This document shows positions 5,094-63,388 of a stretch of DNA of 64,000 nucleotides, in pieces; the stretch's first letter is position 1, and each line of letters starts with the position of its first letter. The stretch covers positions 126,480,001 to 126,544,000 of the forward strand of contig OZ024740.1 in NCBI GenBank assembly GCA_964016885.1, given 5' to 3'. Made by a program: the position numbers and the translations under genes. Source of the stretch: Eledone cirrhosa (lineage: Eukaryota). The notes beneath the pieces are model-generated. The model was given only the letters and a program-made list of their open reading frames with translations, was not told where the DNA came from and did not search any database.

Positions 5094-5590
5094 TACGAGT
5101 GAAGAATAACACTGATAAGCTGTACAGTTGTGTTTATTCCAAGTATTAACAAATCATTCATTGGTCCGGTGTGTCTGAAAATCGATATCTGCGGTGCTGC
5201 TTTGACATCCATTTACATACTGTTATCAACAGCCAAATTATCAAAATACTGTATTTTAATAATTTGGCTGGTGAGAACAGTACTTAAAGTCGGATGTCAA
5301 AGCAGCACCACTGGTAGCGGTTTTTAGATACACCGGGCTAATTAAACATTTGTTAATACTTGGAATAAACCCTACTTATAACTTTTCGATGTTATTCTTC
5401 ACTCGTTCACTATTAATACTCCACTTACCTACAAACTATCGGGAATCAGCCAGCCGAACACCACAACTAGGTAAACATCTTGTCGAGTTAAACAACGCCG
5501 CACGTTAGAATCATCCACTGTACAGATTGCTCATAATCTTTACTTGGATTACCAAATACGAAAGCTTATTTACTTAAATGCATACATATA
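5094..5590. mobile_element. Palindromic PLE/retrozyme end with two head-to-head HHRs
   Basis: Arms 5094-5249 and 5251-5405 are inverted about position 5250. The right arm continues as a tail. (TA)n flanks on both sides. Confidence 0.75.
5142..5250 (-). ncRNA. Hammerhead ribozyme, U3-A8 core, long stem II, GAAA decayed to GAAT
   Basis: Minus strand AGTATT-TTGATAA-TTTGG...CCAAT-GAAT-GATTTG-TT-AATACT, with a 6-bp stem I. Confidence 0.65.
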
Positions 5591-6181
5591 TATATATAGT
5601 AATAATAATAAATTTGAAGTCTAAAATCCAAAGAGGGCTTGATAAGGATAAATATATATCAAATATATTAGTTTGTACAGACACACACTCACACGCACAT
5701 ACACACACAATCACAAATACAAACACACACATACAAACATGTATATATATATATATATAAGAGTGAAGAATAACACGGATAAGCTGTACAGTTGTGTTTA
5801 TTCCAAGTATTCGGTTTCCTAGTTAGGATTTTAGTCTACGACTTCAGCTATACCATTTATGTGGTTTTGTCTTTGCGTGCAATTGTTCCCCACGCTCCAC
5901 ATATGACGTATTATCTTCGTTTTATTCCGTTCATTGCCAGAGAACGTCTCTATGAACCACCTAAGAGAACATTAGTCTACGACTTCTTTTATACCATAAA
6001 CGTGGTTCTGTCTTTGCGCGTAATTGTTTTTCACCGCTCCTATTAAAAGACGTATATATTCGTTTTTTCCCGTTCTTTGCCAGGGAACGTTTCCACGAAC
6101 CAAAGTATCGTCTTCCTGTCTTCCTCCGATTGCAACGTTTTTTTGAAATATCCACTTCTGCGTTTACAGATTGACTTTGTT

Positions 6182-6232
6182 AGTTTCAGAAGATCCCGTT
6201 AAGGGTGAAAGCAGCGATTCTTTGCTTAAACT
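6182..6232 (+). ncRNA. Type-I hammerhead ribozyme with CAGAAGA (U4A) core
   Basis: AGTTT-CAGAAGA-TCCCGTTAAGGGT-GAAA-GCA.GCGATTCTT.TGC-TT-AAACT; all three stems pair. Confidence 0.75.
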
Positions 6233-6386
6233 TTAATCTGTTATTTTAATATATATTTGCTCTACGGTTCTTATAGATTTGATATATATTTATCCTTATC
6301 GAGCCCTCTTTGGATTTTAGTCTTCAAATTTATTATTATTACTATTTGGCTCCCTCGGTTGAGCACTCTATTGACTTATATTCATC

Positions 6387-8515
6387 ATGCAGAAACAACA
6401 TCTGAATATTTCTACAAACAACATACCCGTACCAAGCAGGGAAACATACCTAAAACTCGTGATACAGAAAACAGACGCGTTCATTAAAAGGTTGCGTTGG
6501 CGTGCCTTTTATTTTGATAATCCGCAAAAAGCAGACAACAAACAGGATAAATTCGGGTTTAAAACCTATAATAACCCCCCGTTTAACCCAGCATTGCTAC
6601 CCTTCGAAAATGATGTCTTGGAACTCATACGGAGTTTCAAATTTCGGAATAGGAGCAATTCCTTCCAGCAGGACCTGAAGAATTGAATTCGTTCTATTAA
6701 GGATTCTAATGCCGTGCACGTCCATTCCGACAAAACTGGCAACCTATATCAAGTGGAGCGCAGTACTTACCAACAACTACTACATAATGCTGTAACTAAG
6801 GATTACCGTAAAACTAATCGGTGCGTCATAAATGAAATCAACGATGCTGGGTTTAAAATCACCTCTGATCTCAACATCCTGGACCGGACCGAACCTCTGG
6901 ATCCTATTTCTCCCCACTTTACCCTGAAGGATCACAAATCCAATTTTCCGAACAACCTCTCTATTCGGCTTATTAACCCTACGAAGTCCGATTTAGGTAG
7001 ACTTAGTAAAAGGATTCTTGATAGAATTATACCAGAAATTAAAATGTTGGCCCCTCTTGCACTGTGGAACAATTCTTTCGTGGTGATTGATTGGTTCAAC
7101 GGCATATGCAACAAGGAATTTTGCCGTTTTATCCAATTCGACATCAACAATTACTACTCCTCCATCATTTTACCACTTCTCCTTAGAGCTATCAATTTCG
7201 CTAAAACACTCACAGTGGTTAAGGATTTCGAGGTTGATGTCATCCTCAATGCCCGTAAGTCGGTGATTAATTTCGACGACTCTATTTGGATAAAAAAATC
7301 CAATAGTACCACATTCGACGTGAGTATGGGCGCCAGCGATTCTGCGGAGGTTACCGATCTTATCGGCCTTTTCCTTCTTTTCTCTATCAAGGACGAATTC
7401 CCCAACGCGGGCGGTGGTTTGTACCGTGATGATGGTCTTTTGACCATGACTAAGTGCGGACCTCTTGCTTGCGACTGGTTCAGAAAAGAACTCACAGCCT
7501 TCTTTAAAGGCTTCAACCTCTCTATACAGGTTTAGGCCAATCTCTCGGTCGTTAATTACCTCGACGTTACCCTCAATTTATCGAATGGGTTGTATTACCC
7601 GTATAGAAAGCCGAATGATACGCTTAATTACATAAGTAAGGATTCCAAATTTCCTGCCAGCATAACCAAGAACCTTGGAAGAAACGTTTCGTTGAGGCTT
7701 TCCCGTCTATCTACTAACGAGCATATTTTCAACGACCATTCCAATTATTACAATGAAGTTCTTGCTCGGAGTGGATTTGTCGATAAGGTAGCATATACAG
7801 AGTACGAAAATAGACCTAGAAGAAATAGATCCCGTCGCATTTGTTGGTATAACCCACCATATAATATGGAGGTGACCACACCATTAGCTAAGATCTTTAT
7901 TTCCCTTATTACGAAGCATTTTCCCCCTACACATAAACATAGTAACATTTTTAATAGAAATACTATTAAAATGTCTTACTCTACGACTCCTAACCTTGCA
8001 CATAACATAACAGTTTCAAATTTCGCTAAACTACATAGCCGTAGGAACACGTGCAACCCTGTAGTTAGTACTAACTGTAATTGTAGGAATCGGGTTGATT
8101 GACCCCTATCCGGGAAATGCCTCTCTAGTAACATCGTCTACAAATGTAGGTTGAAACACCCACGTCCCGTAGGGCCTATATAGGGTTAACCGCCAATAGA
8201 TTCAAGCAGCGTCTTTACATGCATACCCATTTTTTTCGTTACCCGCTAAGAAGGAATATGACGTCACTTTCAGCTTATATCTGGAGTCTAAAAGACAACC
8301 ACCCCCAATATAAGTTACACTGGGAAATCCTAGCTAGGGCTAGATCGTATAACGGAAATAAAAGACCATGTGACCTCTGCGCCGCTGAGTCCCTGGAAAT
8401 ACTCTACGCCACAGACCACATCTTAAACAAAAAATCTGAGGCAATTTCAGCTTGTAAACATAAATTGCACAAAACTTTCCTGTATTACAGCCTCACGCTA
8501 TACCCTAACGGATAG
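6387..8515 (+). pseudogene. PLE reverse transcriptase + C-terminal GIY-YIG endonuclease, disrupted
   Basis: Motifs TLKDHK..RLINPTKSDLG, FIQFDI, FDVSMGASDSAEV, GLYRDDGL, WYNPPY, NCNCR, YIG, CDLC..E. Stops at 6684, 7533 and 8100, plus a frameshift near 8150. Confidence 0.9.
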
Positions 8516-9351
8516 TACGATCTAAACGTGGATATTTTACGTCTTGATGTGGTAGCTAAGTATATGTTTTGTTTATACCATTACTTATTTGCATAGGTAA
8601 GTATATATTACCTGTATGTTTTGTGAAGGCACGTATACTTTCTCATACGTATATTTGATTGTATATGTTATGGCGTATAATTTTATATATATTCTGGTAT
8701 ATATGGTTTGCTTATGTGTATACGGGAGTTTTGCGTCTGTGTGAGTATGCAGGTTCGTACGTATGTAGGGTGTGTGTATATGTGTACTTCAATATTTTGG
8801 TTGACTTACGTCTCCGAACATTTGTGTATTTACATGTAGGTATGTGTGTGCGCTTGTTATATACGTATTTATTTATATACGTTTATTTAATTATTTATTT
8901 ATTTGTATACACGCACACACACACACATATCTATATATGCGTGGTTTTGTATACCTATGGCAAGTGTTTTCGCATATGCTTGTGTATGTACGTATTTGCA
9001 TGCGTGTATGTATTTATTTAATTTCTATTACCTCTGCATTGTATTTTATTTACTTTATTCTTAACTCTGAAGCGGAGATTCATTCGGTTTCCTAGTTAGA
9101 ATTTTAGTCTACGACTTCAGCTATACCATTTACGTGGTTTTGTCTTTGTGTGCAATTGTTCTCTACGCTCCATATATGACGTATTTCCCGGTTCTGTCTT
9201 TGCGCGTAATTGTTTTTCACCGCTCCTATTATATTCGTTTTTTCCCGTTCTTTGCCAGCGAACGTTTCCACGAACCAAAGTATCGTGTTTCTGTCTTCCT
9301 CCGGTTGCAACGTTTTTTGAAATATCCACTTCTGCGTTTACAGATTGACTT

Positions 9352-62111: not shown

Positions 62112-62151
62112 TACTTTTGAAAAGCAGAAGAACTGCGAAACCGGTAAAGTA
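62112..62151 (+). ncRNA. Minimal hammerhead ribozyme, U3-A8 core; inverted copy at 63650-63686
   Basis: TACTT-TTGAAAA-GCAG.AAGAA.CTGC-GAAA-CCGG-TA-AAGTA. It lies in repeat 62078-62289, which is the reverse complement of 63491-63722. Confidence 0.82.
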
Positions 62152-62399
62152 ACCAAATAAATATATATATATTTTTTAAAATAAGATTCCAGTTGCATTT
62201 TCGATTTCATCTTTTTTTCTTTATACTTTCACTCGTGTAGGACACCTCCGTTATTTTTCATTTTGTAAAAAATAACCTCACTTTCTAATATATATATATA
62301 TATATATATATATATATATATATATATATATTAGAAAGTAAGGTATCCAATGATGTTGACTTGTTCTTTTTTTGGTAAATAGCATCTTGATTAAGAGAG

Positions 62400-62670
62400 T
62401 GTGACTGGCTTTGTGCAGTGCCTTTGCTCACTATTAAAGCTTCACGGCACAGGCATTGCTTTTTATCTAGAGATGTCTCTGCACTTGTCATCACATGGTA
62501 CCATGGGCCCAGCGCTATGTGTCTATACTTGTCACAAGTGTAGTGTTTGTACCAGAGTTTTCAAGTCGCTGGCTGGACTAACACGTCAACCTCGTTCAGC
62601 GCTTCGGTAGGAGTTCTCCTACATGGATATAAAGTAGTGGCCGTACCCGAAAACGAGTTACTAGCCACCA
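62400..62670 (+). mobile_element. RTE LINE 3' fragment
   Basis: C2H2-like [16 protein letters not shown] and 3' UTR TGGCCGTACCCGAAAACGAG..GCCACCA, similar to the 10412-10455 end. Confidence 0.6.
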
Positions 62671-63293
62671 TATATATATATATATATATATGTATATATG
62701 TATACATGTATACTTGTATATATATATATATACACACACACATATATATATATATATATATATATTTACACCTAAGCATATGCACACTGCACCATTTATG
62801 GTATTTAGATAAACAACGGAAAAGTTAAATATAATAAAGCTAAAAGCGGAATGAATGATATATGAGGTATATTGAACATGCGACTTTTTAGTATGTTGCT
62901 GAAAATGTCGCCATTATGTTAGTAAATGCGGAGTGTAATAGTTTCGTCCAGAAAATTGATTTTCCGAATCATACAGATTTGATTTATTTAATTCATTTTA
63001 ACAACTGCATAAGTTTGAATATCATCTCCAACCCTGGGGACTTGTGTTCAATATCGTATAGATTTAAAGAAACAGGGACATATACAACAATTTGTACATA
63101 TACTTGATAGTACAGGCAGATATAGATATCGGTGCCCACAGACGGGTAGAAGCACACACAGACACACATACAGGCACACAGAAACAGTCATGCATAGTCT
63201 GTATGAGTGTGAAGACAATAATATATATCGTACCGCATATACAAACATACAGAAAAGCCGATGAAATTTGGTCATATATATATATAAAAATAT

Positions 63294-63388
63294 ATAGGAA
63301 CGAGTAGGACCCCGACGGCTGAGCTCAAGCCGTTTCGACGGCTTACCACATTTCCTTACCACGCTCCTTACCACATTTCCTTCGTTAT
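63294..63388. mobile_element. Family M mini insertion
   Basis: ATAGGAACGAGTAGGACCCCGACGGCTGAGCTCAAGCCGTTTCGAC followed by a stuttered tail CTTACCACATTTCCTTCGTTAT. Confidence 0.8.

Follow-up and report, generated by a model that had tools for sequence, protein, structure and literature searches.

Penelope-like elements (PLEs) are the retroelements closest to telomerase, and the present analysis concerns the way in which their copies end in a stretch of Eledone cirrhosa DNA (GenBank assembly GCA_964016885.1, contig OZ024740.1, positions 126,480,001 to 126,544,000 of the forward strand). This stretch, called here the window, comprises 64 kb of animal DNA rich in AT, in which 63 (TA)n blocks and many PLEs occur. 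In L1 twin priming, a single RNA is primed from both strands, at the poly(A) end and at a variable internal site, and the resulting inversion is joined by microhomology from two parts that do not overlap. Among PLEs, both strands were cut and extended in vitro by PAc, a Poseidon-clade element of Anolis carolinensis, with copying started at two internal sites that bound the tail and with genomic ends lying on these sites (Frangieh et al., 2024; PMC11167929). As far as the available text of that study goes, the start sites were non-homologous to the target and did not differ between the strands, and the steps after initiation were left unvalidated. In the available part of earlier descriptions, the tail is an optional addition to one inverted pseudo-long terminal repeat (pLTR), at its 3′ end, for which self-priming was proposed (Arkhipova et al., 2013; PMC3846280); it was ascribed to endonuclease resolution or self-priming (PMC3846280; Craig et al., 2021; PMC8557442), and the formation of inverted and tandem PLE ends was stated to be an open question (PMC8557442). 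The accessible text of a retrozyme preprint (10.64898/2026.07.22.740005) does not mention tails.

Microsatellites were masked, the window was compared with itself, and each arm of an insertion was aligned to the read-through copy of its family; S denotes the short and L the long 3′ end of an arm, and all pairing counts cover the 64-kb window. A first-pass annotation of this DNA had proposed from 18 coordinates that inverted PLE arms stop at two fixed points per family. Eleven of these coordinates were found to belong to four multi-copy PLE families (three in A, four in M, two in P and two in I), and all 11 insertions consisted of head-to-head arms, one ending at S and the other at L, at points common to the family, as had been predicted for each insertion. 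The chance of 11 mixed pairs under random use of S and L was 0.5^11 = 0.0005, or 0.001 when A1 and A2 were counted once, because their S arms carry the same 11-nt deletion as well as the same private junction. No equal-ended two-armed insertion was present among the local inverted pairs obtained from the self-comparison of the window. The reuse of the same endpoints by independent copies was borne out in families A, M, P and I, apart from the non-independent S arms of A1 and A2, and the end sequences quoted for A, M and P were indeed present in the window. For the remaining coordinates the proposed rule was carried less far; five single-copy cases displayed only arms of unequal length, and the cases at 10128 and 35761 were not established. 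Whereas the tail is "optional" in the available text of Arkhipova et al. (2013) and Craig et al. (2021), S and L were both found here in 11 of 11 insertions, and several of the arms did not overlap.

The insertion A1 (5596-9425, L/S) begins with a minus-strand long arm (5596-5671) which consists of the tail only (reference 6270-6345) and whose L end adjoins (TA)n. It is followed by a plus-strand junction filler of 145 nt (5667-5811), a templated copy of DNA situated 500-700 nt leftward (4983-5147) that includes the end of insertion B, and then by the plus-strand short arm (5809-9425), the 3′ pLTR of which stops at S. Within this short arm, an internal pLTR with the S point at 6256, the tail at 6257-6345 and a broken Hydra-type reverse transcriptase (RT)-GIY-YIG open reading frame (ORF) at 6387-8512 were located, all on the plus strand. 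The insertion A2 (32878-34624) is made of a minus-strand L arm reaching into the ORF (32878-34384) and a plus-strand S arm (34383-34624), and the mini-insertion A3 (22539-22628) of a 16-nt minus-strand L arm and a 67-nt plus-strand S arm without any overlap. The right pLTR of A1 (9183-9425) was also seen to carry the inversion-junction letters of A2 (34376-34624), derived from the antisense strand of the ORF, together with the same 11-nt deletion, although the two copies lie 25 kb apart; the shared letters suggest that neighbouring copies underwent conversion or that the template was switched from one to the other.

In family M, M1 (20454-20532) combines a tail-only L arm (-) with an S arm (+), while M2 (36982-37103) combines an L arm (-) reading through S with a 22-nt S arm (+) around a 1-nt-loop centre placed within 2 nt of the predicted hammerhead cut. 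M3 (53984-54253), an older copy, is composed of an S arm (-), a filler and an L arm (+), and M4 (63294-63388) of an S arm (-) and a tail-only L arm (+) whose last bases are stuttered. P1 (37148-42766) has an L arm on the minus strand (37148-39133) and an S arm on the plus strand (39134-42766), in which an open RT-GIY-YIG frame of 1045 codons (39138-42275) and a predicted hammerhead (42566-42608) are located; P2 (23458-23790) has its S arm (-) and L arm (+) separated by a 10-nt loop. I1 (58301-58824) is formed by an L arm (-) and an S arm (+) whose 1-nt-loop centre at 58630 coincides with the 5′ edge of the predicted hammerhead, and I2 (58835-61701) by an L arm (-) with a Hydra-type endonuclease (EN) remnant and an S arm (+). 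In the right arm of I2, a (T7A)n array (60880-61075) counts 24 units and has expanded from a short T-rich stretch of the left arm.

The tail, measured from S to L, was 58 nt in P, 74 nt in G, 79 nt in M, 89 nt in A, 115 nt in D, 135 nt in I and 162 nt in H, with putative tails of 179 nt (B) and 439 nt (F) in two single-copy cases. A tail was found at one end, with a length of 58-162 nt against 30-40 bp in described PLEs, which is also the tail length of PAc. The likeness to PAc lies in a tail bounded by two internal start sites, with extension of both strands demonstrated in PAc and the ends read from sequence here, and furthermore in AT-rich targets, a nearby hammerhead and a predicted dimer. 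Inverted arms, and the question of which ends are combined in an insertion, are not discussed in the available text of PMC11167929. The partial tandem and inverted arrangement of pLTRs typical of EN-positive (EN+) PLEs was observed.

Among the single-copy cases, B (5095-5585) has unequal arms with 179 nt extra at the right and a T/A homology of 1 nt only. D (34710-35701) carries a tandem L arm (-) with an internal read-through copy of the tail and an S arm (+), and it is the only single-copy case in which the extra part of the arm was demonstrated to be element sequence, by way of the internal copy at 35236-35380. G (47666-48782) has 74 nt extra at the left and a hammerhead predicted in both arms, and H (48796-52147) has 162 nt extra at the left and a Hydra-type ORF remnant. 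F (45730-46259) was the exception, as its short arm stops upstream of the predicted hammerhead cut, 262 nt before reaching it. Family C (C1, 10128-10404) was rejected as an S/L case, since its arms share about 17 nt at most and its link via other copies was weak, an equally good score being reached by 1 and 12 of 300 shuffles, and the short end of E1 (35765-35914; 35761 in the first-pass annotation) adjoins (CT)n, unlike that of its sister copy at 9433.

For the ends of family A beyond the window, the region 5960-6700 was compared with four (X1, X4, X6 and X17) of 19 listed public runs, the ends being counted as contigs in X1 and X4 and as reads in X17, a restriction-site-associated DNA (RAD) run. 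Among the largest loose ends, listed ahead of 760 lesser ones, those followed by (AT)n piled up at 6256 (S) and 6345 (L). In X1, 148 contigs ended at S and 147 at L; the counts were 3 and 1 contigs in X4 and 2636 and 596 reads in X17, and in X6 one (AT)n-joined end, at 6345, was among those listed. The depth past 6345 dropped 10-39 fold. Both positions lie inside the read-through copy and at least 41 nt upstream of the ATG at 6387, and they represent two sharp RNA-internal ends of the PAc type, which agrees with the two end peaks forecast by the first-pass annotation. A rough S/L ratio based on depth was 0.93 (X1), 0.92 (X6), 4.95 (X4) and 0.45 (X17), where run depths are not copy numbers, RAD data are locus-biased and the X4 tail is perhaps too diverged to align; furthermore, equal totals of S and L do not prove pairing per insertion. 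The two sharp ends of family A are confirmed beyond the window, and the pairing of S with L is shown inside the window only. A scan of metagenome contigs for a family A motif gave no matches. In X17, 777 reads had foreign sequence before position 6255, probably from one locus with a nested insertion, and this foreign sequence presumably resembles a Helitron 5′ end.

It may be argued that such ends merely reflect the AT-richest places for (TA)n annealing, or points where decay stopped, and that their pairing is an artefact of selection. The ends do carry T/A homology, and for several old blocks flanked by TA no classification was possible. However, 3-27 equally homologous positions, many of them unused, are present within 100 nt of each end, yet two ends dominate the public data, and two more old insertions with unequal arms (32253-32735 and 46292-47636), absent from the first-pass annotation, were found in the window. 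We regard this explanation as very improbable, and for family A it is largely refuted by the (AT)n-joined ends of the public runs.

None of the 10 strand-switch joints listed ahead of 72 other joints was tail-to-tail, against 0.46 expected at random, and these joints were dropped as a test of S/L pairing for having too little power. Each of the 10 listed joints had one side at 6182-6199, which is where the hammerhead-like motif of family A has its 5′ edge, and in five of them one side lay in the tail (6271-6300) with the other 89-107 nt upstream. In each of the four runs, the depth rose at 6185 by a factor of about 2-4, and the cluster of arm 5′ ends at 6182-6199 may mark a transcript start.

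The hammerhead-like motif of family A (6182-6232, +) was located by a motif scan, with the variant core CAGAAGA and a predicted cut after 6227. The scan gave 13 sites at a score of at least 11, against 0-1 in 10 shuffles, including those of A, I, G, F and H; the hammerhead of P was found by inspection and folding, M displayed the 3′ half only, and for B or D none was found by the scan. A stricter second scan gave 3 sites only and was not used. There was no hammerhead family among 104 Rfam matches (E up to 1), nearly all of which were microsatellite-driven miRNA models. With these predicted motifs the pLTRs would carry the hammerhead expected of EN+ PLEs. The S end followed the predicted cut by 20 nt (M), 29 nt (A), 61 nt (G), 65 nt (I), 135 nt (H) and 164 nt (P), and in F it preceded the cut by 262 nt. 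The earlier statement that S comes shortly after the hammerhead does not hold in general. The hammerhead cut was also considered as a general 5′ end of arms and was rejected, since the only fits were M2, with a distance of at most 2 nt, and the joint listed at 6228. In family A and a relative (6187-6193, 9357 and 46330-46345), the predicted hammerheads have CAGAAGA instead of CUGANGA as the core. Hammerhead-like motifs with a very long stem II of 85-110 nt were seen at 58636-58759, 61504-61632 and 49205-49093, and that of I1 folded better than 199 of 200 shuffles.

The ends themselves were found to finish in short T/A runs. Among the 11 ends with a read-through copy, 10 finished in 3-5 alternating T/A bases, the exception being B; by chance, at least 3 such bases would be expected at 2.1 of the ends (P = 4e-7). 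Thus, the lack of homology between start site and target described for PAc was not found here. The L arms of A3, M1 and M4 are confined to the tail and have no sequence in common with the S arms; because there is no overlap, neither arm can have templated the other, barring a later deletion of the centre, which favours two priming events that were joined afterwards. The junctions contained short microhomologies, with a stutter in M4.

We consider it fairly probable that PLE insertions into (TA)n arise when both strands of the cut prime on one RNA, one at S and the other at L, and the two copies are then joined. The PLE RT-endonuclease would cut both strands of the (TA)n repeat, and each freed 3′ end would anneal by 3-5 bases to S or L of the same RNA and prime copying. 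The two 5′-truncated copies would be joined by microhomology or by a templated filler. A single RNA carrying both priming events would explain the mixed S/L pairing most simply. To our knowledge, PLE RTs are without RNase H, and overlapping arms would result from an L-primed enzyme displacing the S-primed copy. Many transcripts would start near the 5′ edge of the hammerhead, which would give mostly mini-insertions, with full copies only from tandem transcripts. What can be read directly from the DNA comprises the fixed ends, S with L in 11 of 11 insertions, the T/A homology, the non-overlapping arms and the fillers. Priming of two strands at two sites, as put forward in the first-pass annotation, fits these data and matches the anole protein in vitro (PMC11167929), with fold-back still able to account for I1, M2 and F. 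The likeness to L1 twin priming consists in two strands on one RNA and an inversion joined by microhomology; the difference is that both sites are fixed here and the arms often overlap.

The indel states of the arms bear on the number of RNAs involved. Arms of one insertion had indel states in common, with 0 gaps within an insertion versus 2 between insertions for P, and 0 versus 5-9 for I. If each strand instead primed on an RNA, or a unit of a tandem RNA, of its own, through an asymmetric pair of enzymes that prefers S on one side and L on the other, the pairing of S with L would be a strong bias and not a rule. Such use of two templates accords with the arms of A2, which end about 1 kb apart, with those of P1, whose ends differ by 1705 nt, with the template switching in A1, with the uneven S/L ratio of X4 and with the published tail, described in the available texts as "optional" and "often only at one end". 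It is opposed by the absence of S/S or L/L pairs among the 11 insertions and by the common indels of the P and I arms, for which a single active source locus or later conversion would be equivalent, and we hold it to be unlikely.

The centres of the insertions bear on a further explanation, in which only L is primed, the second arm is formed by fold-back, S is fixed by endonuclease or end-joining on DNA, and the centres are deleted later. It is close to the self-priming and endonuclease-mediated resolution in the available parts of PMC3846280 and PMC8557442, and it would account for the 1-nt-loop centres of I1, M2 and F and for the 10-nt loop of P2, the centre of M2 being a natural mini-palindrome. 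Such 1-nt-loop centres are expected from fold-back, but equally if two enzymes run off one and the same end of the RNA. The tiny arms of A3, M1 and M4 without overlap speak against it, as do the S arms of A1 and P1, which extend much further 5′ than the L arms, and the anole protein, for which initiation on RNA was seen at both sites in vitro (PMC11167929). We judge this explanation quite unlikely.

Several observations weigh against two-site priming on one RNA. The arms of A2 differ by the 11-nt deletion, which fits two templates, and three of six measured centres (I1, M2 and F) are the 1-nt-loop palindromes that fold-back predicts. A stem-loop signal at S or L was absent in all seven families examined (z -1.0 to +0.4), whereas PAc has an AC-rich stem-loop. 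In X4, a related organism, S outnumbered L by about 5 to 1, and the ratio of S to L was 0.45 in the RAD run X17. The joints 6245-6297 and 6251-6292, of unstated kind, could be L/L insertions, and the rise in depth at 6185 could stem from a subfamily whose upstream part is different. The copy J2 (63492-63724) is a single arm without a second one, and several TA-flanked, hammerhead-bearing blocks (25753-26310, 36514-36942) without a recognisable second arm tell against a general wording. The pairing is known from this window alone, and in the available text of the anole study neither homology between start site and target nor a strand difference was seen (PMC11167929), as against 3-5 nt of T/A at 10 of 11 ends here. 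Target-site duplications are unreadable inside (TA)n.

A stricter form of two-site priming on one RNA would make it obligate, with an enzyme pair and one RNA always giving one S and one L at (TA)n, and we offer it only tentatively. It would also include, as parts of the same tentative whole, annealing by 3-5 bases, displacement of the leading copy by the trailing enzyme, and transcript starts at the 5′ edge of the hammerhead which would yield mostly mini-palindromes, the ORF being copied via tandem transcripts.

The coding capacity of the elements is that of EN+ PLEs, with a single ORF containing RT as well as a GIY-YIG domain at the C-terminus, open in P and broken in A. The P frame (39138-42275) contains YVDD and VYS..YIG motifs and an asparagine/threonine-rich repeat at its N-terminus, and its best match, at 69% identity, was a predicted RT-domain protein of Octopus vulgaris. 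P1 appears young because its arms are 98.5% identical, and its frame is a candidate for in vitro work. The broken A frame has YRDD and C-terminal EN motifs. When read against the published description of the Hydra clade (Craig et al., 2021), family A displayed RWR (for RWK), DKT, a CxC-X5 linker whose last position is a stop in this copy, CxxC and CxH, no CCHH, and a (TA)n target, and it shares the hammerhead-like motif with that clade; H and I have C-terminal remnants similar to those of the Hydra clade. The linker of P is CX4CxxC, of Neptune/Nematis type, and the P RT did not align with the A RT by BLASTP. On these motifs, A would be Hydra-type and P Neptune/Nematis-type. M, D, G, F and B have no ORF in the window, and Pfam gave no matches for any of five PLE pieces.

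Other features of the window included family J, whose copies at 63492-63724 and 62078-62287 stop at one common point. Inverted repeats face each other across (TA)n at 2908-3295 (32-nt arms) and 62275-62345 (arms of about 13 nt), in an orientation opposite to that of the PLE insertions, and possibly reflect fold-back repair in (TA)n. A remnant of a Mutator-like element (MULE) transposase was identified by Pfam at 21115-22011, and the minus strand holds what is left of two non-LTR retrotransposons (10656-14035 and 14480-17932), with frames for endonuclease and RT.

Fixed two-site initiation, two-strand extension and a tail often at one end are already published, as far as the available texts go (PMC11167929, PMC8557442, PMC3846280); the two-ended signature is the published PLE tail in a stricter form, and the elements belong to known PLE clades. 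In the openly searchable literature, we found neither pairing of S with L per insertion nor T/A homology at PLE start sites, nor tails of 58-162 nt, two to four times the published length, nor this pattern in Hydra-type and Neptune/Nematis-type elements. Since the parts are known, the result is a useful sharpening for the specialist and not a surprise. A strict rule of one S and one L would tie the two-strand, two-site initiation seen in vitro to the inverted arms of genomic copies, and it would be a practical guide for the annotation of PLE boundaries. If obligate priming of this kind were true, it would hold across the Hydra, Neptune/Nematis and Poseidon clades, and the tail, the inverted pLTR and the partial tandem would all come from one mechanism.

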